Positions 1,460 to 43,362 are shown, counted from the first letter of the stretch. The stretch: DNA of 46,124 nucleotides from Candidatus Micrarchaeota archaeon (GCA_043806415.1 JAZDHB010000025.1:1-46124); one strand, 5' to 3'. The notes: generated by a model from the letters alone, not told the origin. Program-made: numbers and translations.

Positions 1460-3223
1460 ATGCCAAGAATCGCGATTATCGACCGAGACAAGTGCATCAA
1501 GGAGAAATGCGGCTACATCTGCCAGAAGGTCTGCCCGGGCGTGCAGATGGGCGACGATACGGTGACGGTGGACGCCGACGGCTTCCCGGTCATCTCGGAG
1601 ATATTGTGCACCGGCTGCGGCATCTGCCCCAAGAAATGCCCGGTGGACTGCATCACCATCATCAACCTCGCCGAGGAGGGCGGGGTGAAGATGCACCAGT
1701 ACGGCGTGAATTCCTTCCGCCTCTACGGCATGCCCCTGCCCCAGAAGGGCGTGACGGGCCTCATCGGAAAGAACGGCATCGGCAAGAGCACGGCCCTCAA
1801 GATCCTCTCCAAAAGCATCGTCCCCAACATGGGCGATTACGCCGATCCCCCGCCCATGTCCGACGTCATCGCCCGCATGCCCAAGGAGGTCGGCTATTAT
1901 TTCAAGAGCCTGGGCGAGCAGAAGATCAAGGTCTCGCTCAAGCCCCAGAACGTGGACAAGATCCCCTCGCTTTTCGGCGGAAAGGTAAAAGACCTGCTCG
2001 AGAAAACCGACGAGCGCGGCGCCCTTCCCGAAGCCATCAAGCTCTTCGAGCTGGAGAACATCATGGAGCGCCGCCTCCTGCAGATATCCGGCGGCGAGCT
2101 GCAGCGCGTGGCCATCGCGGCCGCCTATTGCAAGGACGCGGACATCTACTATTTCGACGAGCCGGCCAGCTACCTGGACATCTACCAGCGCCTGCGCGTG
2201 GCCCGCGCGCTCAAGGAGCTGGCCGAGAAGAAGAACGTCATCGTCGTCGAGCACGACCTGGCCCTCTTCGACTACCTGAGCGACTACGTCTATGTCTTCT
2301 TCGGCCAGGAGAACGCCTACGGCATGGTGTCGGGCCTCAAGAACACCCGCTCGGGCGTCAATGATTATCTGCGCGGTTTCCTGCGAGAGGAGAACATCCG
2401 CTTCCGCGACCACGAGATCGTGTTCGACCGCTCGGCCCAGATGGGCACCAACAAGAAGACGCGCTTCTCCTACCCGGAGTTGAAACGGAAATTGGGGCAA
2501 TTCCGCTTCCAGGCGCAGCCCGGCCAGCTGCACGAGGGTGAGATCGTGGGCATCGTGGGCCGCAACGCAACCGGCAAATCCACCTTCGTGCGCATGCTCG
2601 CCGGCGTGGAGAAGAACGACGGCGAGGAGATCGGCCTTTCGATGCGCGTGTCCTACAAGCCGCAGTACATCCAGGCGCAGGGCGGGCGGACGGTGGGCGA
2701 GCTGTTCATGGCCAGCAAGCTGGATGCCATGGTGTTCGAGCAGGCGCGAGCGAAACTGAACGTCGAATCGCTCATGGACAAGGACCTCGAGCACCTCTCC
2801 GGGGGCGAGTTGCAGCGCGTGGCCATCGTGCTGGCCCTCTCGCAGGACGCGGACCTCTATCTCCTGGACGAGCCCAGCGCGTTCCTCGACGTCGAGCAGC
2901 GCCTTCATTTGGCCAAGCTCGTGCACAACCTCATCGAGAATTCCAGGAAGACGGCGTTCGTGGTGGACCACGATCTTGTGCTCATCGACGCCATTTCCAC
3001 GCGCGTCATGGTGTTCGAGGGCGAGCCGGGCGTCTCGGGCGCGGCCTCCGCCCCGACCGACAAGCGCACGGGCCTGAACAAATTCCTCAAAGAGGTGGAC
3101 ATCACGCTGCGGCGCGACCCGGAGACCTTCCGGCCGCGCATCAACAAGAGCGATTCGGCCCTCGACCGCGAGCAGAAGGCGGCGGGCGAATACTACTATT
3201 ACGATCCGGACGCCGATAAGTAG
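1460..3223 (+). CDS. abcE1: ABCE1 / RNase L inhibitor-type ribosome recycling ATPase
   Basis: N-terminal FeS domain (CxxCxxxCP, CTGCGICPKKCP). Two ABC cassettes with Walker A GLIGKNGIGKST and GIVGRNATGKST, and signature LSGGELQR in both. 587 aa. Confidence 0.95.
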   Translation: MPRIAIIDRDKCIKEKCGYICQKVCPGVQMGDDTVTVDADGFPVISEILCTGCGICPKKCPVDCITIINLAEEGGVKMHQYGVNSFRLYGMPLPQKGVTGLIGKNGIGKSTALKILSKSIVPNMGDYADPPPMSDVIARMPKEVGYYFKSLGEQKIKVSLKPQNVDKIPSLFGGKVKDLLEKTDERGALPEAIKLFELENIMERRLLQISGGELQRVAIAAAYCKDADIYYFDEPASYLDIYQRLRVARALKELAEKKNVIVVEHDLALFDYLSDYVYVFFGQENAYGMVSGLKNTRSGVNDYLRGFLREENIRFRDHEIVFDRSAQMGTNKKTRFSYPELKRKLGQFRFQAQPGQLHEGEIVGIVGRNATGKSTFVRMLAGVEKNDGEEIGLSMRVSYKPQYIQAQGGRTVGELFMASKLDAMVFEQARAKLNVESLMDKDLEHLSGGELQRVAIVLALSQDADLYLLDEPSAFLDVEQRLHLAKLVHNLIENSRKTAFVVDHDLVLIDAISTRVMVFEGEPGVSGAASAPTDKRTGLNKFLKEVDITLRRDPETFRPRINKSDSALDREQKAAGEYYYYDPDADK

Positions 3224-12108: not shown

Positions 12109-13428
12109 TCAATCCGCCCAAGGCGGAGCCTCGGACGGTTTCTTTTGCACCGCCCCTTTGGCCCACGGCGGCGCATCCGCCGGTTTCTTCTCGTCCGGGA
12201 CGTTCGGGGTTTCTTTTTGGCTCGTTTCGCTTCCGCTCGAACGCGGGGGCGCATCCCCCGGCTTCTTTTCTTCCGGCTTTCTCTCTTCCGATAAGGGCAT
12301 CTTGTTCTCGACGATGGGTGCCGTGGCATCTGTCTGGGCCGCGACTAGGCTTGTTTTGGGCTGCGTTTGGGCGTCAACATGGTCTGTTCGAGACTGGTTT
12401 TGAGGGTTGGCCGGGCTTGTTTGCCTGGTTTGTGCATTGGCCGGGCTTGCCTGGGCTTGAACCTCCAGTTTCGTCTGTTCGGGCACGGTCTTGGCTTCCG
12501 GGGCTTTGTGCAAGGCGCCAGCTGCGGGTTGCACGTCCTGTCTTTGCATATGATGTCCTCCGTGCCTCGGCCGGTTCCTGTGCGAAAACAGGGCATATGC
12601 CGCGATGGCCAAGGCCGCAAGCACCACCATGGCGGGCAATAGCACTCCTGCAAGGGAAGAGCCGGCATCTGGGCTTGTTTGGGCACGCTGGGCCGTTGAG
12701 GGCACGGTGCCGGGGCCCAGCCACGAGCCTGGTGGTTGCGTCCGGATCCCGCTCTCCGGCCCGCTGGCCGTGATATTAGGGATGGGACCGGATGCGCCGG
12801 CCGCGCCCGCACCTGTCTGCCCGCTCAAATCCGTTGCCCCGCTTGCGTTGTTCCCGGCCTGGCTGTTGGGCGAGGCGCTCGGCGCCGGGGTCGAGGCTGG
12901 ACTCTGCGCCAGGCTCTCCGGAATCAGCCGGAATACGGCCAGGCCGCTCTCGTTCGGGGACGAGATGCACAACTGGTTGCCCTGCGCCTCGACCCCGATG
13001 GGGGCGCCTGCCTGGAGGGCGAACGAATACGCGAGGCGTCCGTCGCTGAACGCCCTTGGCTGGCCGTTCGAATCATCCACCGGCCGGAAAGCCCGCTCCG
13101 ACACCAGCTTGAACAGGCACGAGCCGGGCGTCTGGTTGCTGAAATTGGCGGCCAGCTCGACCTCCTTGTCGTCGAGCGGCTGTCCGAAGCTCTGGTAGTC
13201 CGGCCCGGCTCCGAAGCCGGGGTAGCATTTCTGGCCGATGCAGCTGAAGACGGAAAGCTGCGAGTCGTTGCCGAAGTAGATATTGATGCCGTCGTAGTTC
13301 AGGTAGGTGGGCGCCAGGGCGCTGGCGTTCGTTGAATTCGGTGCCGCCCATGCGGCCGCAAGAAATAGAAATAAGATCGCGCACGTCCTGGTAAAATCCA
13401 TCCGGCTTTTTATACCCGTTCCCGCCAT
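12109..13428 (-). CDS. Type-I membrane protein: signal peptide, Ser/Pro-rich stalk, one TM, low-complexity basic cytoplasmic tail with KKPx(D/E)APPW repeats
   Basis: N-terminal hydrophobic CAILFLFLAAAWA. TM LAGVLLPAMVVLAALAIAAYALF followed by HRNRPRH. TATA ttataaa (13450-13456, minus sense) lies about 25 nt upstream of ATG 13428. Confidence 0.7.
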   Translation of the reverse strand: MAGTGIKSRMDFTRTCAILFLFLAAAWAAPNSTNASALAPTYLNYDGINIYFGNDSQLSVFSCIGQKCYPGFGAGPDYQSFGQPLDDKEVELAANFSNQTPGSCLFKLVSERAFRPVDDSNGQPRAFSDGRLAYSFALQAGAPIGVEAQGNQLCISSPNESGLAVFRLIPESLAQSPASTPAPSASPNSQAGNNASGATDLSGQTGAGAAGASGPIPNITASGPESGIRTQPPGSWLGPGTVPSTAQRAQTSPDAGSSLAGVLLPAMVVLAALAIAAYALFSHRNRPRHGGHHMQRQDVQPAAGALHKAPEAKTVPEQTKLEVQAQASPANAQTRQTSPANPQNQSRTDHVDAQTQPKTSLVAAQTDATAPIVENKMPLSEERKPEEKKPGDAPPRSSGSETSQKETPNVPDEKKPADAPPWAKGAVQKKPSEAPPWAD

Positions 13429-13493
13429 GCCTCAAGCACGCACTGAAAATTTATAATCGGATTTCCCCGCACTTTCTTTCTCTTTGGAAGGCG

Positions 13494-13576
13494 TTTTCTT
13501 TCCCGCAGGCATACTTCTTTCTTTCGGGGTCAAGCCCATTTCTTTCCCGCAGGCATACTTCTTTCTTTCGGGGTCA
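13494..13576. repeat. Two tandem copies with a 45-bp period (conserved core ttctttcccgcaggcatacttctttctttcggggtca, 37 nt)
   Basis: Copies at 13494-13532 and 13539-13576, near identical by direct comparison. Located between tRNA-Ala and the promoter of 12109..13428. Confidence 0.85.
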
Positions 13577-13578
13577 GA

Positions 13579-13641
13579 CCGTTTCTCTTTCTTTTCGTGA
13601 AGGTTTTCTTTCTCTTCCGCAGAAGAGAAAGAAAAGGTTCT
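13579..13641 (-). repeat. Intron-like hairpin element immediately 3' of tRNA-Ala (family member 1)
   Basis: Minus-sense AGAACCTTTTCTTTCTCTTC-TGCG-GAAGAGAAAGAAAACCTTCACGAAAAGAAAGAG. It has a 14-bp perfect stem and aligns at roughly 75-80% with the tRNA-Thr intron. Confidence 0.75.
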
Positions 13642-13796
13642 TGGACACAGGGGGAATCGAACCCCCAGTCTCTGCCTCGTTCGGAGCCCTTTGGCTTTGC
13701 GGGCATTGCCCCCGGAAATTCTTTTTCCGGGGTTTTTGGCGCTCCGCGCCAAAAAGCCCTTGCGAAGGCAGCGTCTTACCATTCGACTATGTGCCC
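13642..13796 (-). tRNA. tRNA-Ala(CGC) with an approximately 83-nt intron at 37/38 (about 13678-13760)
   Basis: Minus-sense GGGCACA-TA-GTCG-AATGGTA-AGAC-G-CTGCC-TTCGCAA ... GGCAG-AGACT-GGGGG-TTCGATT-CCCCC-TGTGTCC-A. The G3:U70 pair is the Ala identity element. The intron folds into two long hairpins (a 14-bp stem with one mismatch and a perfect 9-bp stem). No CCA is encoded. Confidence 0.9.
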
Positions 13797-13808
13797 GTTC
13801 TGATTTAC

Positions 13809-13937
13809 GGCGAAGGCAGCGCCTTCCTCAGCGCGAAGCGCTGGGGATAGACGGCCAACAGGCCGGCGTATACGCAAGCCCGCAGGATTGCGGACAGGCC
13901 GCCAGAAGGCGGCCGTGTACCATCCGACTATGTGCCC
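13809..13937 (-). pseudogene. Partial upstream duplicate of the tRNA-Ala 5' half, interrupted by an insert of about 93 nt
   Basis: GGGCACATAGTCGGATGGTA (13918-13937) matches the functional copy at 19 of 20 positions. AGGCGCTGCCTTCGCC (13809-13824) repeats the D-stem and anticodon-arm segment. The upstream motif TAAATCAG is also duplicated. There is no separate T-arm or 3' acceptor strand. Confidence 0.6.
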
Positions 13938-14014
13938 CTGTCAGAATCCGTGCCCCGGTCACCTGATTTAACTCGGGCAAGGTTAATAAAAACACTTTTC
14001 CCGCAAAGCAAGGC

Positions 14015-14680
14015 ATGAAAGTCGTCATTCTCTTCTCCGGCGGCAAGGATTCGGTCTATGCCACCCACCTCTGCCTCTCGTGGGGCTGGGAGGTGGAATG
14101 GCTCACCCTCCACCCTCAGGAGGATTCGATGATGTTCCACCACCCCAACACGCGATGGTGCGGACTGCAAGCCGAAGCGGCCGGAATCCAATGGCACGAA
14201 ATCCGGGCAGCAAGCCATGAAAACGAACTGGATGACCTCGAAGAAGCGCTCGGGCGCCTGAAGGCCGCCGGAAAAATCGAAGGCATCGTATCGGGCGCCA
14301 TCGCGTCCGAATACCAGAAGCAGCGCATCGAAGTCATCGGCGAGAATGTGGGCCTGCCCACCTTCGCCCCATTATGGCACAAGAAGCCGGATATCTTGCG
14401 CGAAATGCTCGAACAGATGGAAGTCTATCTCGTGTCCGCATCGGCCCAAGGGCTGGATGAGAAGTGGTTGGGCAGACGGCTGGAGCCCAAAGACGTGGAT
14501 CGCTTCCTTGCCATGAGGCCGGCCATCCATCCCTTCCTCGAGGGCGGCGAGGGCGAGACGTTCGTGTGCGACGCGCCGTTCTTCAGGAAAAAAATCAGGA
14601 TAAAGAAGATGGAAAAAACGTTCGAGGGCCAGTCCGGCCGGGTAAACATCCTCGAGGCGGTTCTTAAGAAAAAAGTCTGA
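14015..14680 (+). CDS. dph6: Diphthine-ammonia ligase (diphthamide synthase, MJ0570/Dph6 family PP-loop ATPase)
   Basis: N-terminal MKVVILFSGGKDS PP-loop, SGAIASEYQKQRIE, and C-terminal EGGEGETF. TATA ttaataaaaa 13983-13992 lies about 25 nt upstream of the ATG. Confidence 0.85.
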   Translation: MKVVILFSGGKDSVYATHLCLSWGWEVEWLTLHPQEDSMMFHHPNTRWCGLQAEAAGIQWHEIRAASHENELDDLEEALGRLKAAGKIEGIVSGAIASEYQKQRIEVIGENVGLPTFAPLWHKKPDILREMLEQMEVYLVSASAQGLDEKWLGRRLEPKDVDRFLAMRPAIHPFLEGGEGETFVCDAPFFRKKIRIKKMEKTFEGQSGRVNILEAVLKKKV

Positions 14681-14713
14681 GCCGTCTCTCCCCGCTCCCT
14701 TCTCTCTCCTCTT

Positions 14714-15385
14714 TCAGTTCCCGCTCGAGGATAGCCTGTCCAGCTTCTCGATCATGTCGTTGAGCTCTTTTCCGTACACGGCCGACACCTTCAACGTCGC
14801 CGAAAACTGCGTCTCGATCGGGATCTCCTTGTTGATGCTGACCATGACGTTCCCGTAGCTCTTGGCCACATCGATGGGGATGCTCGCATTGACCTTGAAG
14901 TTGTCCTTGATGTGCAACGGCACGAGCTGGCCGGTGTTGGACTGCGCCGTCACGGTGGTGTCGATGGGGACGTCCGCCGTCAGCGGCACGCTGAACGAAT
15001 CGGGCAGCACGTCTGCGATCGGGAACGTCTTGTCGATCACGACCGTCGTGCGCAGGGGCGAGGTCATGGTGATTTCCTTGTTCTGGATGGCACGCAGGTC
15101 GGCCGTGACGTCCTTGAGCACGGCGCGGTCGGACGCGCTCAGCCCCTTGACGGACGTCACCGAGACGAACAGGGCGGCGGCGGAGAGCAGCAGGGCGACG
15201 AGGCCGAGCACGAGGGGCAGTTTGGACATGGCGGCCGCTTCGGCGCCCGCCGACTCGAGCGAGGCTTTGTCCGATGCGCTCTTCGCCTCCTCTTTCTTGG
15301 GCTCTTTCGCCCCTTCCATCTCTTCGCGGCTCTTGCCGGCCATGAGGCCGGAGGGGAGCTTGGAGAAATTTTCGTCGTTTGCCAT
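14714..15385 (-). CDS. Hypothetical single-pass membrane protein
   Basis: Acidic/basic N-terminus, TM LPLVLGLVALLLSAAALFVSV, and a beta-rich C-terminal domain. No family recognised. Confidence 0.6.
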   Translation of the reverse strand: MANDENFSKLPSGLMAGKSREEMEGAKEPKKEEAKSASDKASLESAGAEAAAMSKLPLVLGLVALLLSAAALFVSVTSVKGLSASDRAVLKDVTADLRAIQNKEITMTSPLRTTVVIDKTFPIADVLPDSFSVPLTADVPIDTTVTAQSNTGQLVPLHIKDNFKVNASIPIDVAKSYGNVMVSINKEIPIETQFSATLKVSAVYGKELNDMIEKLDRLSSSGN

Positions 15386-15450
15386 AACGTCCTATTGCGG
15401 CGAATAATTAAAAAGCGATTTGCCCTTAATGGAAGCCTAGGTGATTTTCG

Positions 15451-15732
15451 ATGCCCAAAGTCCTGTTCAAGAATGACAATCTTAGCGTGGAATGCCCGGC
15501 CGGCACCAAGCTCGTCGAGTTGGCCGAGCAGAAAGGCGCGTCCATCAACTTCTCGTGCAAGGAGGGCGTGTGCCTCACCTGCCTCGTCAACGTCGTGTCC
15601 GGCATGGAGAACCTCAACGCGCGCACCGAGAACGAGACAAGCACGCTCGAGGCGTTCGGCGCGCAGCCCAACCAGCGCCTCGCCTGCCAGGTCGTCATCA
15701 ACGGCGACTGCGTGATCGAGACGGTCGGATAA
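15451..15732 (+). CDS. [2Fe-2S] ferredoxin (plant-type fold)
   Basis: 93 aa with CKEGVCLTC (Cx4Cx2C) and a distal Cys in RLACQV. Confidence 0.8.
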   Translation: MPKVLFKNDNLSVECPAGTKLVELAEQKGASINFSCKEGVCLTCLVNVVSGMENLNARTENETSTLEAFGAQPNQRLACQVVINGDCVIETVG

Positions 15733-15763
15733 AAGGCGGGCCAGCCGCGCTGCAAGGTGACCC

Positions 15764-17209
15764 ATGGGTTCTGCCAAAAATTATATGCTTGCGGCCATCG
15801 CATTGGGGGTCTTCATACTTCTCGTCTGGGCCTGCTTTCAGGTCGGAAAGGCTTACATCGAGAAGGCAATCGTATATATTGCGGTGTTCTTCGTTTTGCT
15901 GATTTTCGCCCTTGGTGGCCTCGGAGTCTATTATCATGGATTGAATCTTTATCGGATCTATTCGCTCATCCAATATACGCCTACGTCAAAGGCCGTATCC
16001 TTGGCACCTGGCATCAGCGAGGCGCAGGGGCCGGCCCAACCGCACGACCGGCTCAAGACGGCACCTTACGGCCTCAAGCCCTGCGTGTTCTATTGGACGC
16101 GTATATACAAATGGTCGGGTTATGGAAAACATCGAAGACGCGACCTAGTGAAAGTCCTCAAAAGCAACGATTGCTTCGACATCGTGGACGAGACGGGCGC
16201 CATCACCATCCGCCCCTCGAAAATCCCGGGAGGCCACGGGGAATGGGAGGGCGACATCTACCTCAAGCGCGATGTGAATGCCCGAGTGGTGCCGAGCCGG
16301 AACAGCCTTTTTGGGGTTATGGGCCGGATAATGGCGATTCTGATGGGACGCGAGCCCCCCAAGCCGCCCGAGCCGAAGTCCGGAAGCGATAAGGGGCGCA
16401 TGCGCGCCATGCTGGCGTCCTATTGCCCCGATCTGCTCGAATACCGCGACCAGGTGGATGTGGAGGAGACCTACATCGAGCCGGGCGATCTGATTTATGT
16501 CTTGGGCACGGCGCGCCCCAAAGAGGCTCAAAATCCGGATGATCTGGAGATTGCCTACGAGCCGACCAACAAAATCTTTTGCGTCTCAGATGGCAGCGAG
16601 AAGAATACAAAGCGAAGCGCTCTTCTGAACGCTTTTTTGCTCGGCTTCATCGGCCCAATAATCTTCGCAGTCTGCATTATGCTCATGGCGAGGATATGCG
16701 CGGCTGGATTGAGCCAGATCGTGGACAGCCTTTTGGCCGGGCTGGTCGTGCTTCTTTATACCTGGTTTGCAGCTACCAATCTTTTCGAACTCTATAACGG
16801 CACCGTCCGCCTGCGCCAGAACATCGAGAAAGCGAAGGCCAATGCAGACGCTCTTTATGACATGCGCCATAATTTGTTGCCCAAGCTGGTCGACGTGGCC
16901 CGGTCGGCTTCCAAATACGAAAAGGGATTGCAGGACGAACTGGTGCGTTTGCGGGGGGTGGAATCTGAAGATGCCCTCAAGCGCCTGATGGCCTTGAGCG
17001 AGGACTATCCGAAACTGAAGGCCAGCAAGAACTTCCTGTTTCTGCAAAAGCGGCTTGAAACCGTGCAGGAGAGGCTGGCCGGCTCGCAAGCCTATCTGGT
17101 GGATGCCACCACGCTCTACAACGCGCGCGTGCAGTCTTTCCCCTATTTCCTCTTCACGCCGTTGGTGGGCCTGCGGGCGATGCCGATGCCTGATTTCAGT
17201 TCGGCTTGA
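15764..17209 (+). CDS. Membrane protein with a C-terminal LemA domain; the N-terminal TM and central domain are possibly GIDE-like
   Basis: The C-terminal third (NLFELYNGTVRLRQNIEKAKANADALYDMRHNLLPKLVDV...YNARVQSFPYFLF) matches the LemA pattern. Several N-terminal and central TM helices are present. Confidence 0.75.
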   Translation: MGSAKNYMLAAIALGVFILLVWACFQVGKAYIEKAIVYIAVFFVLLIFALGGLGVYYHGLNLYRIYSLIQYTPTSKAVSLAPGISEAQGPAQPHDRLKTAPYGLKPCVFYWTRIYKWSGYGKHRRRDLVKVLKSNDCFDIVDETGAITIRPSKIPGGHGEWEGDIYLKRDVNARVVPSRNSLFGVMGRIMAILMGREPPKPPEPKSGSDKGRMRAMLASYCPDLLEYRDQVDVEETYIEPGDLIYVLGTARPKEAQNPDDLEIAYEPTNKIFCVSDGSEKNTKRSALLNAFLLGFIGPIIFAVCIMLMARICAAGLSQIVDSLLAGLVVLLYTWFAATNLFELYNGTVRLRQNIEKAKANADALYDMRHNLLPKLVDVARSASKYEKGLQDELVRLRGVESEDALKRLMALSEDYPKLKASKNFLFLQKRLETVQERLAGSQAYLVDATTLYNARVQSFPYFLFTPLVGLRAMPMPDFSSA

Positions 17210-17211
17210 GC

Positions 17212-17637
17212 TTATGGAAGCTCGAGATAAACCGGGATTGTTTCTCGCCCCTTCCAATCCAGGATGTCGGTCTCGAACCCCTTGTGCCGGTACCATTCGA
17301 TAACGCCCGGCGTTGCCTTGGCATGCGCGATAAGGTGGGAGCACCCTGCAGATTTTCGGATGCCCAAGGCGATGCCCACCACATAATCTAAAAGAAGGCC
17401 AGCACCGCCCCGCCCCTCTTCTTTCTTGTCGGTCGCCAGCTTGCCTATAAGAAGGGCCGGGAACTGGCGGGGGAAATCTTTTGGATAATCTCCCAAGCGC
17501 CGGCCCCGCAGGATAAACTCCTTCTCATCCGGTATCTTGAGCGAACCCGTTGCCAGCGTGAGATAAGAAATGAGCTTTCTATCTGATTTGGAGATAAGGA
17601 GATAGGTGACGCCAAGATGGAGGCGCTGGAAGGCCAT
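17212..17637 (-). CDS. GNAT-family acetyltransferase toxin (TacT/KacT-like); conserved sequence continues upstream to about 17772 with no start codon
   Basis: LLIGKLATDKKEEGRGGAGLLLDYV resembles the acetyl-CoA motif. The in-frame stop-free upstream stretch reads ...KFSSDEVYLSILSPEHQPLLSDFSSCSDELNGYLKSDA, which looks like the family N-terminus. It contains no ATG, GTG or TTG. Confidence 0.65.
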   Translation of the reverse strand: MAFQRLHLGVTYLLISKSDRKLISYLTLATGSLKIPDEKEFILRGRRLGDYPKDFPRQFPALLIGKLATDKKEEGRGGAGLLLDYVVGIALGIRKSAGCSHLIAHAKATPGVIEWYRHKGFETDILDWKGRETIPVYLELP

Positions 17638-17771
17638 GGCGTCGCTCTTGAGATAGCCATTGAGTTCATCGCTGCAGGATGAGAAGTCGGAAAGGAGCGG
17701 CTGATGCTCTGGCGAGAGGATGGAGAGATAGACCTCGTCCGATGAGAATTTTCGCTGCGTAGACGCACACC

Positions 17772-17915
17772 CTAACGGAGCTCAAGATGGAGCTTCTGGG
17801 CGCGCGCAATGGTGGCATCCCGGGCCGGATTGGGCGCCTTGGCTAGCCAGTGAGCGAGAAACCGCTCGGCTTCTTCCGGAGCCAGTTCGACTATGTATTG
17901 GATAGGTTTAGCCAT
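17772..17915 (-). CDS. 47-aa putative antitoxin-like partner resembling the C-terminal toxin-binding half of DUF1778
   Basis: MAKPIQYIVELAPEEAERFLAHWLAKAPNPARDATIARAQKLHLELR. It is not in the ORF track because it is under 60 aa. Its TAG overlaps the first in-frame codons of the GNAT reading frame. Confidence 0.4.
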   Translation of the reverse strand: MAKPIQYIVELAPEEAERFLAHWLAKAPNPARDATIARAQKLHLELR

Positions 17916-17987
17916 GCACTTCGCCTCGGGTAATATAAGATGCCGAACGGGCTTAATAACGCTTTGGAGGCGGGTTTCCGATCGAAG

Positions 17988-18422
17988 CTAAGTCCGTTCA
18001 GCACGCCGTAGCCATTCGCTTTTCCTTTCCAGTTTGGCATCCAGCGACTCCTTGACGCCCATCCACTTGAATCCGCAGAACGGGGCATCCACTTTCGCCG
18101 TCCGCCTCTTCGCGCTCACCATAAAGCCGAGCGCCGGGACGAATTTCCGTCTTTTCCTCGAGCCCACGTTGAATTCCCCCTGCACGATCGCCTGATGCAC
18201 CTGTGCGTCGATGCCGCACTGGGCCGCGACGGCCCGCTTGAGGGCTTCCACCGGATCCTCGCCGGCATAGACGAATACGGACGGAAGGGCGAAAAGGCTT
18301 TTTCCGGCAAAATCCTTCGTCTCCAGGAAGAGGTACCTTCCCTCGTCCTCGAGCAGGGCGCAGGCTAGGGCGACCGGCTTCTTGGCTTCGAGCAATTTCC
18401 TTCGGCGCATGATTGAATGCAT
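17988..18422 (-). CDS. Nudix-fold protein with a degenerate Nudix box
   Basis: GEDPVEALKRAVAAQCGI occupies the position of the Gx5Ex7REUxEExGU box, but the catalytic EE pair is absent. An alternative start at 18410 is possible. Confidence 0.45.
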   Translation of the reverse strand: MHSIMRRRKLLEAKKPVALACALLEDEGRYLFLETKDFAGKSLFALPSVFVYAGEDPVEALKRAVAAQCGIDAQVHQAIVQGEFNVGSRKRRKFVPALGFMVSAKRRTAKVDAPFCGFKWMGVKESLDAKLERKSEWLRRAERT

Positions 18423-18474
18423 CCCGTAATGTTCTTATTGATGCCTTGTCAGATTTATTCTGTTGCCGGTGTCG

Positions 18475-18543
18475 CATAACCTGGCAGCGCGCGAAGCCTT
18501 TTTCTTTCGTGCCGAAAGAAAAAGCCTTCAGGGAAAAAGAAAG
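18475..18543 (+). pseudogene. tRNA-Ser 5' fragment (positions 1 to about 26) fused to a copy of the intron hairpin element (family member 2, 18494-18543)
   Basis: CTGTTGCCGGTGTCGCATAACCTGG is identical to the region around the start of the functional gene 111 nt downstream. The anticodon-arm 5' strand is deleted. The hairpin CTTTTTCTTTC/GAAAGAAAAAG has one extra T and one matching extra A relative to the intron copy. Confidence 0.6.
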
Positions 18544-18552
18544 GGCGATTTG

Positions 18553-18560
18553 TTATAAAA
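18553..18560 (+). promoter_or_regulatory. TATA box for tRNA-Ser
   Basis: ttataaaa lies 26 nt upstream of tRNA position 1. Confidence 0.6.
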
Positions 18561-18585
18561 TGATACAGGGTAGAATCACTCTGTT

Positions 18586-18736
18586 GCCGGTGTCGCATAA
18601 CCTGGTAGTGCGCTGGTCTTGAAGAAGCCTTTTCTTTCTGTGAAAGAAAAGCCTTCAGGGAAAAGAAAGTCCCGAAGGGAGGCTTCCAGATAACCAGTCC
18701 CTTACGGGATTGCAGGTTCAAATCCTGCCGCCGGCG
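18586..18736 (+). tRNA. tRNA-Ser(UGA), class II, with an approximately 68-nt intron at 37/38 (about 18624-18691; family member 3)
   Basis: GCCGGTG-TC-GCAT-AACCTGGTA-GTGC-G-CTGGT-CTTGAA[intron]A-ACCAG-TCCCTTACGGGAT(long variable arm)-GCAGG-TTCAAAT-CCTGC-CGCCGGC-G73. Confidence 0.85.
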
Positions 18737-18818
18737 CTCACTTCGCTCGCTTGTCGGCAGTTTGAGCCCTGCGGGCTCAAAACCCTCGCGCATCTGGCGC
18801 TCGGTCCTGCCGCCGGCG
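18737..18818 (+). repeat. 68-nt hairpin mini-insert plus a 14-nt duplicate of the tRNA-Ser 3' end
   Basis: TCCTGCCGCCGGCG occurs at 18723-18736 and again at 18805-18818. The insert contains the hairpin TTTGAGCCC-TGC-GGGCTCAAA (18761-18781). Confidence 0.8.
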
Positions 18819-18864
18819 ATTGATTATTTAACTGTCGCATTCTTATCCCTCTAGAGGTTTTCCC

Positions 18865-19020
18865 ATGGGAATGAGCAAGCACGATCTGGAGCGAAAAAGG
18901 CAGAACATGAAGCGGCGCGTGGAGGAGCTGGAGCTCCTCGTCAAGAACGACCCGCTCAAGCGCAAGCCCCAGATCCACGAGGAGCTCGAGAAGCTCAAGA
19001 AGCAGCTCGCCGAGAACTAG
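18865..19020 (+). CDS. Small (51 aa) coiled-coil protein, hypothetical
   Basis: MGMSKHDLERKRQNMKRRVEELELLVKNDPLKRKPQIHEELEKLKKQLAEN. The A/T box gattatttaac lies about 27 nt upstream. It is below the ORF-track size cutoff. Confidence 0.4.
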   Translation: MGMSKHDLERKRQNMKRRVEELELLVKNDPLKRKPQIHEELEKLKKQLAEN

Positions 19021-19050
19021 TTTTCGGCCCTTTCAATCTTTTCCGCCTTT

Positions 19051-19365
19051 TTACTCTTTACTCGATTTTCGGAAGGCGTCGATCAGCCCGTGGGCGTAGT
19101 TGATGGCCCCGAACGCGGTCACGTAATCCTTCTTCTTGAGGAAATATTTGGTGTCCTCGCAGTATTGCTCTGCCAGCTCCAGCACATATGCGTTATCCGT
19201 CGTCTTCTTCACTTCCTTGACGTTGGCGTAGAACTGGTCGATGTCGGAGCGGATCCGCTCCTCATCGTTTTTCGCGCTGGCATGGCCGGATTTTCTTTTT
19301 TTGCGCTCCATTTCCATTCCCTTTGCGACGAATTCGTTTTCTGACGTGATTTGTTGCGATATCAT
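19051..19365 (-). CDS. DUF357-like small archaeal protein
   Basis: ELAEQYCEDTKYFLKKKDYVTAFGAINYAHGLIDA resembles the DUF357 helical-hairpin motif as I remember it. I chose the MISQQ start because the TATA ctattatag lies about 20 nt upstream. The track ORF extends to 19413. Confidence 0.5.
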   Translation of the reverse strand: MISQQITSENEFVAKGMEMERKKRKSGHASAKNDEERIRSDIDQFYANVKEVKKTTDNAYVLELAEQYCEDTKYFLKKKDYVTAFGAINYAHGLIDAFRKSSKE

Positions 19366-19379
19366 TTTAAGTCCCCGCC

Positions 19380-19388
19380 CTATAATAG
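19380..19388. promoter_or_regulatory. Palindromic TATA box (ctataatag) shared by divergent genes
   Basis: It lies between ATG 19365 (minus) and ATG 19413 (plus). Confidence 0.45.
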
Positions 19389-19412
19389 CCTTCGCATGCT
19401 GGGGTAGTTTCA

Positions 19413-19754
19413 ATGCTCGTCATCACCAAATCATTCATCGGCCGCGTCAAATTCGGGCAGAAGGAGGACGCCGGCGTGTACACCTGGATCGCCTATCCCA
19501 ACGACCAGTATGCGATGCATTCGGCGGTGATGAAGGTCACCCCGGTCAGCAAGAACCACGAGGAGGGCGAGGAAGAGAAGAAGCACGCGCACGTGAAAAG
19601 CGAGCAGGGAAAAGGCGGCCAAGACGGAGAAGAAGAGAGGAAAATCCAGAGCGTGAAAGTCGGAGGGGGCGATTCTTCCGTGGAGGTCGCGCCCGCCCCC
19701 GCCCGCGTCGCCACCCTCCAGCCGTTCAAGCAATTCGAGCTTTTCCTGAACTAA
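19413..19754 (+). CDS. Hypothetical protein with an acidic low-complexity centre
   Basis: 113-aa ORF about 29 nt downstream of the shared TATA. No family recognised. Confidence 0.45.
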   Translation: MLVITKSFIGRVKFGQKEDAGVYTWIAYPNDQYAMHSAVMKVTPVSKNHEEGEEEKKHAHVKSEQGKGGQDGEEERKIQSVKVGGGDSSVEVAPAPARVATLQPFKQFELFLN

Positions 19755-19797
19755 ACCCTTTTTTAATTTGATTTTGGCCTATTTAACAAGCATTCAT

Positions 19798-19947
19798 GCC
19801 CTCGTAGCTCAGTGGTAGAGCGCCTGTCTCGTAAGCTTTTCTTTTCTCCTGCGGGAGAAAAGAAAACCTTGGAAATGAAAAGAGAAGCATCGGCTTTCTT
19901 CTCTTCGGGATAACAGGAGGTCACGAGTTCAAATCTCGTCGGGGGCT
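19798..19947 (+). tRNA. tRNA-Thr(CGU) with an approximately 78-nt intron at 37/38 (about 19834-19911; family member 4)
   Basis: GCCCTCG-TA-GCTC-AGTGGTA-GAGC-G-CCTGT-CTCGTA[intron]A-ACAGG-AGGTC-ACGAG-TTCAAAT-CTCGT-CGGGGGC-U73. Confidence 0.9.
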
Positions 19948-20024
19948 AAACTTCGTTTAGCCAGCCCGACTTTGAGCCTGCTGGCTCAAATCCCGCCAAC
20001 TGTTGTTGGCGGTCGTCGGGGGCT
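19948..20024 (+). repeat. 65-nt hairpin mini-insert plus a 12-nt duplicate of the tRNA-Thr 3' end
   Basis: TCGTCGGGGGCT occurs at 19936-19947 and at 20013-20024. The insert has hairpins TTTGAGCC-TGCT-GGCTCAAA (19971-19990) and CCGCCAAC-TGTT-GTTGGCGG. Confidence 0.8.
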
Positions 20025-20053
20025 TGCGAAGAAAAGTTAAACTTCAATATCGA

Positions 20054-39841: not shown

Positions 39842-40057
39842 GGCACTATTGAATCCTAGGAAGTATATAAAGGTGTGCAATATATCGCACACTTCTGTGC
39901 AGTATGATGAACACTACTGTGCATTAGTAATGCGCACTTTGCTGTTCTGTCATGTAATTCGATTACATGACAAATCCAAAAATGGTTCCCCCGCCTCTAT
40001 CTGATAAATGAGATCAAGGCCTAATATAATATGGTCTTTAGTGTATAAAAATGTATT

Positions 40058-40179
40058 CGCCCCAGCCGGGATTTGAACCCGGATCGTGAGCTTTCGCCTT
40101 TCCAGGCTACTCGCATTCGTGCATCGGTAGCACTTGCCATTCGGAGGCTCGCGTCCTATCCAGGTTGGACTACCAGGGC
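40058..40179 (-). tRNA. tRNA-Arg(CCG) with an approximately 48-nt intron at 37/38 (about 40093-40140)
   Basis: Minus-sense GCCCTGG-TA-GTCC-AACCTGGATA-GGAC-G-CGAGC-CTCCGA[intron]A-GCTCA-CGAT-CCGGG-TTCAAAT-CCCGG-CTGGGGC-G73. TATA tttataaat lies about 30 nt upstream. There is one 27:43 mismatch. Confidence 0.85.
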
Positions 40180-40334
40180 AGCATCAGCTATGGCGCATCG
40201 CAAATTTATAAACCAAATGAGACGTGTTTTCGCCATATGCTGCGGTCTCCGTCTTCAGCCCGTCCATTTTTTCACAAACGCAGGCCTCGAACGATACCAT
40301 TCAATTTTATTAACCTTAAGAATTCCACTCTCCC

Positions 40335-43211: not shown

Positions 43212-43362
43212 TCGCCTCTTCTGCCTCATTCTCTATCTTTATAAATTTGAATCGGGCAAATAAGTCCGTTCCGACGGCATTTTTAGGGGGAGAATCAGAA
43301 AGGAGCGTGGAAAATGAAGAGGGGGACGGTGGTTGCCGTTCGGTTCCCCCTCTGCGTTTTTC

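Follow-up and report, generated by a model that had tools for sequence, protein, structure and literature searches.

A mirror-repeat element of intrastrand-triplex type at tRNA introns and RNA gene ends of a Micrarchaeota archaeon

Four copies of the element at three tRNA loci

The stretch of DNA analyzed here (the window) is a 46,124-nucleotide contig (C25; JAZDHB010000025.1) of a 1.27-Mb, 119-contig, incomplete assembly with 60% G+C from a Candidatus Micrarchaeota archaeon (GCA_043806415.1). It carries genes for tRNA-Ala(CGC), tRNA-Ser(UGA), and tRNA-Thr(CGU), which were placed with the Rfam tRNA model and ARAGORN and each have a long insert after position 37, together with four copies of a short polypyrimidine/polypurine hairpin element (Table 1). 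The four related copies reported by an initial annotation of this sequence were all found in the window, and an unfiltered run of a covariance model, built from 22 copies in this genome, recovered exactly the same four from the whole window (4 forward-strand matches; 55.6 to 69.2 bits; E values, 1e-12 to 1e-9). The reverse strands of these copies gave only hairpin-length echoes in the same run. The element proper is shorter than two of the annotated ranges, which had spanned whole introns.

Members of the family are laid out as a prefix, a pyrimidine arm (Y), a loop, a complementary purine arm (R1), a linker, and a second purine tract (R2), with a total length of 50 to 60 nt. The prefix is (A)GAAGCC, AGGAC, or AGAAC and appears in the window copies as GAAGC(C), AGAACC, or AGC; Y consists of 10 to 15 nt, all pyrimidine, the loop has 3 to 8 nt, and R1 is all purine and, in the window copies, an exact complement of Y. 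The third tract, R2, is R1 read backwards. It was present in the sequences given by the initial annotation, but its mirror logic had been overlooked. An extra T in the 5' arm matched by an extra A in the 3' arm had been noted between copies 2 and 3; this compensation is real and preserves the stem, and it is one part of a triple coordinated change, T5/T4 in the 5' arm, A5/A4 in the 3' arm, and A5/A4 in the third tract. This mirror (triplex-type) symmetry is the most informative feature of the element.

Table 1. Positions of the element copies, host tRNA genes, and associated features in the window
Feature	Position	Strand	Description
Copy 1	13582-13641	-	69.2 bits; begins one base past the tRNA-Ala(CGC) discriminator
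Copy 1, 5' parts	13604-13641	-	Prefix AGAACC 13636-13641; Y 13622-13635; loop UGCG 13618-13621; R1 GAAGAGAAAGAAAA 13604-13617
Copy 1, 3' parts	13582-13603	-	Linker CCUUCACG 13596-13603; R2 AAAAGAAAGAGAAA 13582-13595; mirror match to R1 13/14
Copy 2	18493-18543	+	60.8 bits
Copy 2, 5' parts	18493-18524	+	Prefix GAAGC 18493-18497; Y 18498-18508; loop 18509-18513; R1 GAAAGAAAAAG 18514-18524
Copy 2, 3' parts	18525-18543	+	Linker CCUUCAGG 18525-18532; R2 GAAAAAGAAAG 18533-18543; exact mirror 11/11
Copy 3	18624-18669	+	55.6 bits; 5' two-thirds of the tRNA-Ser intron
Copy 3, 5' parts	18624-18651	+	Prefix GAAGC 18624-18628; Y 18629-18638; loop UGU 18639-18641; R1 GAAAGAAAAG 18642-18651
Copy 3, 3' parts	18652-18669	+	Linker CCUUCAGG 18652-18659; R2 GAAAAGAAAG 18660-18669; exact mirror 10/10
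Copy 4	19834-19885	+	55.9 bits
Copy 4, 5' parts		+	Prefix AGC; Y 19837-19849; loop UGCG 19850-19853; R1 GGAGAAAAGAAAA 19854-19866
Copy 4, 3' parts	19867-19885	+	Linker CCUUGG 19867-19872; R2 AAAUGAAAAGAGA 19873-19885; mirror match to R1 11/13
tRNA-Ala(CGC)	13642-13796	-	83-nt intron at 37/38; H 4/4, h 5/5, h' 5/5
Sister (B-type) module, tRNA-Ala(CGC) intron	core 13721-13760	-	AGGGC-U5-GGCGC-GGA-GCGCC-A5-CCCCGG-A5
tRNA-Ser(UGA)	18586-18737	+	68-nt intron at 37/38 (18624-18691); H 3/4, h 5/5, h' 5/5
tRNA-Thr(CGU)	19798-19947	+	78-nt intron at 37/38 (19834-19911); H 4/4, h 5/5, h' 1/5
tRNA-Ser 5' fragment	18464-18492	+	About positions 1-26/28; two D-arm substitutions; joined straight to copy 2
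Two tandem 44-nt units downstream of copy 1	13495-13575	-	GACCCCG-AAAGAAAGAAG-UAUGCC-UGCG-GGAAAGAAA

Copies 3 and 4 lie at the canonical intron position, between 37 and 38, and copies 1 and 2 lie outside any intron. The bulge-helix-bulge (BHB) motifs of the 23 introns predicted by ARAGORN in this genome were scored for the helices H, h, and h' with a simple script of our own. Two 3-nt bulges, a 4-bp central helix, and flanking helices were found for both the tRNA-Ser(UGA) and the tRNA-Thr(CGU) introns. The first of these motifs is canonical, with AAGCC at the intron 5' end pairing with GGCUU near the intron 3' end, and the second is relaxed, without an h' helix to the intron 3' end. Across the 23 introns, H was complete (4/4) in 14 and h (5/5) in most. 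The h' helix was complete in the Ser(UGA), Ile, His, Ala, and Glu introns and nearly absent from those of Thr(CGU), Arg(UCU), Thr(UGU), and Ser(GGA); in the introns nearly lacking it, the element's own basal helix (see below) is the sole helix beside the 5' bulge. Judged by BHB shape, the element-bearing introns are probably ordinary substrates of the splicing endonuclease. The prefix can pair alternatively with the linker or with the intron 3' end (the h' helix), which could be a switch or merely two ways to build a spliceable insert.

The tRNA-Ala and tRNA-Arg introns had initially been set apart as unrelated to this family. This was borne out for tRNA-Arg (40057-40180); the tRNA-Ala(CGC) intron, in contrast, is of a sister type (B form) with the same layout, as are five other tRNA introns. 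The gene at 40057-40180 is labeled Trp(cca) by ARAGORN and reads as tRNA-Arg(CCG) with an unrelated 48-nt intron. Further ARAGORN labels are wrong in this genome: "Ser(gga)" on contig C3 (3124-3269) is tRNA-Thr(GGU), and "Thr(ggt)" on contig C96 (13167-13399) is tRNA-Ser(GGA).

Covariation of three tracts

In the alignment of 22 copies, the hairpin comprises 17 pairs that are 94% paired, and 11 of these pairs show changes on both sides. The observed covariation score was reached by none of 500 shuffles, and sliding the partner left only 51 to 72% of positions paired. The stems are nearly pure Watson-Crick, with less than 1% G.U. Below a conserved C.C mismatch, a basal helix of 3 to 4 bp is formed between the prefix and the linker; it covaries as GAA/UUC, GGA/UCC, and GCA/UGC, with the further types GUA/UAC and CAAC/GUUG in other genomes.

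The relationship between the two purine tracts is equally specific to register. R1 and R2 are 89% identical in the mirror register (95 to 100% over the first ten positions), compared with 47 to 56% when slid by 1 to 3 positions, 59% when read as a direct repeat, and 65% when the R2 rows were permuted among copies, with none of 2,000 permutations reaching 89%. Of 70 G's in R1, 54 face a G of R2 in the mirror register, and 7 to 16 do so when the tracts are slid. Over 105 copies, from this genome and the loci fetched from other genomes, positions 2 to 8 from the linker hold 3 mismatches in approximately 735 cells, and it is solely toward the loop-distal end that R1/R2 mismatches accumulate.

A length of 8 nt is shared by the linkers of 49 of the 74 copies from the loci of other genomes, and some linkers reach 14 nt. 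Its variants are mostly self-complementary (CCUUCAGG, CGUUGACG, CGUCGACG, CCCAUGGG, CCCUGG, and UGGGCUUGACCCCG), which is what a turn folding R2 back onto R1 would need. Watson-Crick folding of the RNA yields the hairpin and the basal helix and leaves R2 unpaired. The only exception is copy 4, where a pyrimidine tract located downstream, CUUCUCUU (19898-19905), also serves as a pairing partner for part of R2.

A mirror repeat of R1 is a parallel complement of Y, and the element therefore has the symmetry of a fold-back triple helix. To our knowledge, mirror repeats are the product of no template-copying process. On the strand described here, with R2 antiparallel on R1, the expected triples are A.A-U and G.G-C; on the opposite, Y-Y-R strand they are T.A-T and C+.G-C. 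The balance of U.G and C.A mismatches was considered as an indicator of the strand under selection and was discarded, as the mismatches were too few (7 versus 2 in one set and 4 versus 4 in the other).

Distribution in the genome and in other archaea

A strict scan of the genome, for a perfect stem of at least 8 bp followed by a mirror R2 with at most 1 mismatch, gave 41 hairpin-plus-mirror structures on a concatenated count and 34 strict copies after curation, and five third-order Markov simulations of the genome gave none. Nine strict copies lie in tRNA introns, all in sense orientation; eight start 0 to 12 nt past a tRNA 3' end; eight abut a tRNA fragment, four forward and four as the reverse complement; and the nine located elsewhere include second tandem copies and copies right behind stop codons. 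Altogether, 25 of the 34 strict copies are located in or beside tRNA genes or fragments, and tRNA genes make up an estimated 0.3% or so of the genome. By eye, the module begins 13 of the 23 ARAGORN-predicted introns, all in sense, and the sister B form begins six more (Ala CGC, Ala UGC, Thr UGU, Asp, Glu UUC, and Leu CAG), so that 19 of the 23 carry either form. The hairpin of the B form is homopolymeric in its outer U5-6/A5-6 part alone, and a linker of 6 to 8 nt leads to a further A4-5 run.

Many copies are flanked by duplicated pieces of the neighboring gene. Copy 2 lies between a leader with the 5' part of tRNA-Ser, of which approximately 40 nt of upstream leader are duplicated too, and a leader with the whole gene. 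The same arrangement is found at tRNA-Ser(GGA) (twice), tRNA-Thr, tRNA-Arg, and tRNA-Asp, and the 5' part, element, and whole gene are also kept in this order at the tRNA-Ser(GGA) locus of nzgw26, a metagenome-assembled genome (MAG) labeled Candidatus Micrarchaeota. Over that locus, blastn identity between the two genomes is 78 to 98%, and the tRNA exons match closely. At two tRNA-Thr loci, the element is reversed and lies between the gene and a repeat of the gene's last 21 nt. Protein genes show a comparable organization: near-identical 52-nt elements (51/52) occur at two unrelated genes (C3 9109-9155 and C30 13907-13953, both on the minus strand), one SBDS-like and one encoding a basic, ribosomal-protein-like product, in each case between a decayed and an intact gene start of approximately 40 nt that comprises the Shine-Dalgarno sequence, start codon, and first codons. 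The two elements are alike at 51 of 52 positions, versus approximately 84% for the flanking duplicates.

Comparison of orthologous genes revealed that the element turns over. Nineteen metagenome loci encoding relatives (31 to 75% identity) of the neighboring PP-loop ATPase were sampled, and their 148 kb contain just one element. At these relatives, tRNA-Ser(UGA) is intronless (L049), has a 23-nt intron without the element (L047 and L048), or has a 77-nt intron in which Y, R1, and R2 are spelled differently and match as a 14/14 mirror (L046); the window gene has its 68-nt intron with copy 3. The tRNA-Ala(CGC) gene has no intron in L043, L045, L046, or L049. Two of these relatives, L043 and L045, instead have the sister element in the trailer; in L043 it is flanked by two copies of the gene's last 25 nt plus trailer. 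In nzgw26, the orthologous introns of Ile, Arg(CCG), Leu(CAA), Trp, and Ser(GGA) carry differently spelled, internally consistent copies, and the Leu(CAG) intron has the A form there and the B form in the window genome. These observations support the earlier suggestion of intron mobility or duplication: the module is shared by 13 introns of different tRNAs, near-identical copies lie at unrelated loci, and Ser(UGA) and Ala(CGC) orthologues are found without the element, with it relocated, or with it respelled. The alternative named by the initial annotation, a hairpin common to these loci that serves processing or binds a protein, is a possible reading as well.

The family extends well beyond this genome. 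A pattern scan for the linker with its flanking tracts in 185,579 species genomes returned 42 loci, of which 40 are archaeal and come from 17 further MAGs, most of them DPANN; the labels comprise Micrarchaeota (8), Iainarchaeum, Woesearchaeota (2), "Nanoarchaeia" (2), Aenigmatarchaeota (1), Thermoplasmata (2), and an uncultured archaeon (1). The two bacterial pattern matches were not recovered by the covariance model. On 255 kb of fetched loci this model gave 91 matches, and in other genomes the mirror rule holds in 51 distinct spellings. The contexts elsewhere are tRNA introns at 37/38, tRNA 3' trailers, and a D-loop intron in an Aenigmatarchaeota tRNA, and several tRNAs of the MAG S014_66_esom have near-identical intron starts.

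rRNA genes are occupied as well. At locus L007 (approximately 1523-1614, minus strand), a 92-nt intron of 16S rRNA, situated between ...GACUGAAAC and UUAAGGGAAUUGGCGGGGG, opens with the element, and the 3' part of this intron (CUUCCUUGAAG) is common to D-loop introns of Aenigmatarchaeota tRNAs (L013 and L042). The rRNA operon of Iainarchaeum (L029 3915-4291 and 7480-7542) contains only sense-oriented copies: two beyond the 16S processing stem, another immediately behind tRNA-Ala-CCA, and a further one downstream of 23S. Their 8-nt linker, CGUYGACG, is of a different sequence yet palindromic. On a Thermoplasmata-labeled contig (L012 478-879, plus strand), P3 of the ribonuclease P RNA contains a 102-nt insert that holds the element reversed (Y-Y-R). 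This reversed order is the strand order able to form U.A-U triples. Reversed copies argue that insertion is not tied to the direction of transcription.

In AT-rich Woesearchaeota and Nanoarchaeia MAGs (L006, L015, L017, and L018), the element is often located a few bases past a Shine-Dalgarno-like sequence and an ATG. The reading frames differ between these sites, which therefore do not represent conservation at the protein level; they could be junctions of 5' gene fragments like those of the window genome.

Several other features were observed close to the tRNA genes. The tandem units downstream of copy 1 keep a purine arm, a 14-nt hairpin linker (UGGGCUUGACCCCG), and a mirror purine arm, and the pyrimidine arm is missing. 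A TATA-like box at 13446-13459 was considered as an antisense promoter for copy 1 and rejected, as it suits the leaderless start of a minus-strand open reading frame ending at 13428. Just upstream of the complete tRNA-Ala gene lies a broken duplicate of its 5' half (13809-13937, minus strand), in which a GC-rich insert comes behind the D-loop; the relatives L045 and L049 have a comparable duplicate upstream, and the duplication is therefore old. Hairpin-rich mini-inserts of approximately 65 to 70 nt (UUUGAGCC..GGCUCAAA) follow tRNA-Ser (18738-18818) and tRNA-Thr (19948-20030), and each ends in a 12- to 13-nt repeat of the tRNA 3' end. Mini-inserts of the same type are located behind Gly(GCC) (C6) and Pro(CGG) (C104); there, a T-rich terminator comes after the second repeat copy. 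In nzgw26 a mini-insert is found at the 5' end of tRNA-Ser (L014, approximately 2095-2150), and the Ser insert is also present in the relative L046. Finally, a hairpin of the form GGGGGAC...GUUCCCCC-UGCG occurs in the window (43311-43354), on C104 (approximately 2371-2420), at an intron 3' end on C96, and on C3 (2950-3003). It is placed directly upstream of tRNA-Cys, tRNA-Pro(CGG), and a tRNA-Thr 5' fragment, as well as at the 3' end of the tRNA-Ser(GGA) intron, and may be a second shared flank or intron module.

Interpretation and relation to known systems

The four window copies belong to a large, taxonomically wide repeat family of DPANN archaea. Its three tracts covary, and the family sits immediately 3' of exon or mature-RNA ends. 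The element is gained, lost, and respelled between orthologous genes and is often flanked by duplicated pieces of the neighboring gene. We favor, with a probability of roughly 55%, the reading that it is an evolutionarily mobile module of intrastrand-triplex type, which persists where RNA processing discards it. Such a module would be mobile and duplicative over evolution and would survive only where the splicing endonuclease or end processing removes the transcript segment that contains it. In sense orientation, the prefix and basal helix would supply the bulge nucleotide and a helix by the 5' splice site, so that an insertion into the anticodon loop could be spliced out. A three-stranded fold in single-stranded or supercoiled DNA may lead to stalling, template switching, and local duplication, and in RNA only the hairpin would matter. 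That the triple fold forms in DNA rather than in the sense RNA is a guess at little better than even odds; we count for it the copies in both orientations, the flanking duplications, and the almost perfect Watson-Crick stems. A precedent exists in bacteria, whose class II intrastrand triplex repeats adopt their fold as DNA in vitro and are markers of unstable loci (PMC4666352).

Several results weigh against a mobile module. The family showed neither a mobilizing enzyme nor terminal inverted repeats nor a regular target-site duplication, and IMG/VR viral contigs yielded no copy. Copies show a strong orientation bias toward the sense strand of tRNA and rRNA genes, and the basal helix covaries with upstream bases, including the tRNA's own 3' end (GCA/UGC at tRNA-Leu(GAG), here and in nzgw26); both of these features resemble a constraint acting at the RNA level on resident copies. 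Conservation of the prefix and the 8-nt linker extends over genomes of 29% to 60% G+C, which could reflect a conserved binding partner rather than mobility. Moreover, purine-motif (A-rich) triplexes are weak, and RNA third strands in that motif are disputed (PMC7583470), although we count this point in favor of DNA over RNA.

Alternatively, the element may be a functional RNA module of pre-tRNA and pre-rRNA, a reading that we regard as possible but hold only tentatively. The hairpin and R2 would then form an RNA triple helix, or the element would switch between two states: the prefix would be paired with the linker in one, and in the other it would be paired with the intron 3' end, with the linker folded on itself and R2 docked. 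Such a module might offer the processing enzymes the 5' splice site or the 3' end, protect the mature domain against misfolding, or decide what becomes of the excised piece. In line with this, the element is in sense orientation in all 13 introns and all trailers, and its start always lies 0 to 4 nt past an exon or mature end, including those of 16S, tRNA-Ala, and 23S in one read-through operon. The covariation of the basal helix with upstream bases, the ability of the prefix to pair with either the linker or the intron 3' end (BHB h' helix), and the conservation of the linker sequence across phyla point the same way. However, the spacing of 0 to 4 nt between tRNA end and element gives no fixed processing geometry, many orthologous tRNAs manage without the element, reversed copies and copies between duplicated gene fragments exist, and the stems contain almost no G.U. 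The sense strand also offers only the purine motif (A.A-U-rich), which is disputed for RNA strands. We find it doubtful, in particular, that the sense transcript folds as an intramolecular purine-motif RNA triple helix, or toggles between prefix:linker pairing and the triplex, and thereby has a function in the processing of BHB introns and trailers across archaeal phyla.

It is improbable that the element is a transcription terminator or pause module, grown from the oligo-T terminators behind archaeal tRNA genes, with the Y arm as its T-run. Plain T-runs do stand at the same place in tRNAs without the element, T4 to T6 runs occur in Y arms, and the sister element of L043 opens with AGAGC-T5, the native trailer, of which a second version, AGAGC-T7, stands at the true end. 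Nevertheless, 13 introns open with the element, and copies separate 16S, tRNA-Ala, and 23S within a single operon, where efficient termination would be lethal, a separate T7 run is located beyond the 23S copy, and the purine arms and mirror symmetry are left unexplained.

We consider it very unlikely that the copies are joining sequences of split (trans-spliced) tRNA genes, with a 5' fragment plus element forming the 5' half and the reverse complement accompanying a 3' half. There are 5' fragments that have their own upstream region and are followed by the element (18464-18543 in the window, and others on C96, C3, C6, and C41), reversed copies lie ahead of 3' fragments at the two tRNA-Thr loci, and the Ser 5' fragment with the element is kept in nzgw26. 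Separate 5' and 3' halves with complementary flanks were, however, not found in this assembly: a T-arm scan outside the predicted tRNAs of the 119 contigs, which are an incomplete set, returned no orphan 3' half with a complete T-arm, its only yield being chance matches within coding sequence and a single tRNA truncated at a contig end. Every fragment adjoins a complete gene of the same tRNA, the D-stem of the window fragment is damaged, and the same arrangement is seen at protein genes.

There is next to no chance that the copies are ordinary low-complexity pyrimidine/purine sequence spread at random, the outcome that the initial annotation had left to a genome-wide scan, since, even though the tracts are simple and A/T-rich and shuffles of copy 2 fold nearly as well (z = -0.7, one case), the copies concentrate at tRNA loci, the stem covaries in a register-specific manner, linker length and prefix are fixed, and simulated genomes contain none.

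Two narrower ideas were also rejected. One was that an intron is composed of a trailer module plus a leader module; apart from one anecdote at C96/C3, intron 3' parts do not in general resemble tRNA leaders or trailers except in their purine tracts. The other was that BHB splicing, of mRNA or tRNA, links the 5' fragment with the intact copy; on visual inspection a central helix of GCGC/GCGC suits two cases and fails at C30, and outer helices are lacking.

The closest known architecture to the mobile module favored here is that of the class II intrastrand triplex repeats of bacteria, TMECO, BoxC, and PIT (Hoyne et al. 2000; Holder et al. 2015, PMC4666352). Both have the same one-strand order of pyrimidine stem, loop, purine stem, loop, and purine stem, are multicopy, occupy loci that vary between relatives, and carry the complementary class III motif on the opposite strand. 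TMECO differs in being G/C-rich (CCCTCNCCC...), intergenic, and bacterial, with 9-nt stems and a 3-nt second loop. The archaeal family is A/U-rich, and its stems of 10 to 15 nt are of variable spelling, so that mirror and direct repeats can be distinguished; it further has a conserved 8-nt second loop, a prefix, and a tie to archaeal tRNA and rRNA introns and trailers, and there is no sequence relationship. Its tracts, with their scattered G/C, do not fit the TMECO/BoxC consensus CCCTCNCCC N3-6 GGGNGAGGG N3 GGGNGAGGG (PMC4666352). Under the ITxF definition of the class II motif from the same source, the tracts agree by sequence (a Y stem, an R stem, and a second R stem capable of antiparallel binding) and the loops do not, being 3 to 8 nt for the first and mostly 8 and up to 14 nt for the second instead of 1 to 6 nt. 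ITxF search settings would therefore miss most copies.

Among archaeal systems, the BHB tRNA introns described in 2011 (PMC3239211) resemble copies 3 and 4, which are the 5' parts of 37/38 introns with h, H, and both 3-nt bulges in a matching host lineage; unlike them, copies 1 and 2 are not introns. In Thermoproteales, the transposed tRNA introns (Fujishima et al. 2010, cited in PMC3239211 and PMC4090602) are alike in that similar introns occupy different tRNA genes of one genome, as do the 13 introns sharing the module here and those of S014_66_esom. In contrast to them, what is shared here is a defined, structured module of 50 to 60 nt, and it occurs outside introns as well. The mobile-element model of tRNA disruption in Caldiarchaeum (Sugahara et al. 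2012, PMC3293823) likewise involves a 5' tRNA fragment upstream of an intact copy, but the segment from fragment to gene is approximately 100 nt here and lacks a recombinase gene, versus a 1.8-kb element. Three co-linear tracts beside a tRNA-type processing site also recall the U.A-U helices of the element for nuclear expression (ENE) and MALAT1 type, which protect 3' ends (Brown 2020, PMC7583470). The dominant sense orientation has one pyrimidine and two purine strands, however, and a U.A-U helix therefore cannot form. Reversed (Y-Y-R) copies agree in strand order with an ENE plus its A-tract. A miniature inverted-repeat transposable element or a derivative of an insertion sequence does not describe the family, which has no terminal inverted repeats and flanking duplications at some copies only, these being long and irregular (approximately 24 to 70 nt). 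No description of the shared intron core, the mirror symmetry, or the element itself was found in the literature searched, and the family is apparently undescribed.

For practical purposes, tRNA finders overlook or mislabel many of the genes that carry this element. More than 100 natural variants with three covarying strands constitute unusually direct comparative evidence for Hoogsteen-type pairing in vivo. If the RNA triple helix is true, it would be the first natural all-RNA purine-motif triple helix, as well as a built-in 5' splice-site module. The origin and movement of archaeal tRNA and rRNA introns is an open question, and a census of Asgard tRNA introns likewise leaves open how introns arrive (bioRxiv 10.64898/2026.10.13.758758). 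The element provides a recognizable intron core as a sequence handle on this question; because the core also occurs outside introns, is gained and lost between close relatives, and is flanked by duplicated pieces of its target, intron gain in these archaea becomes traceable at the sequence level.

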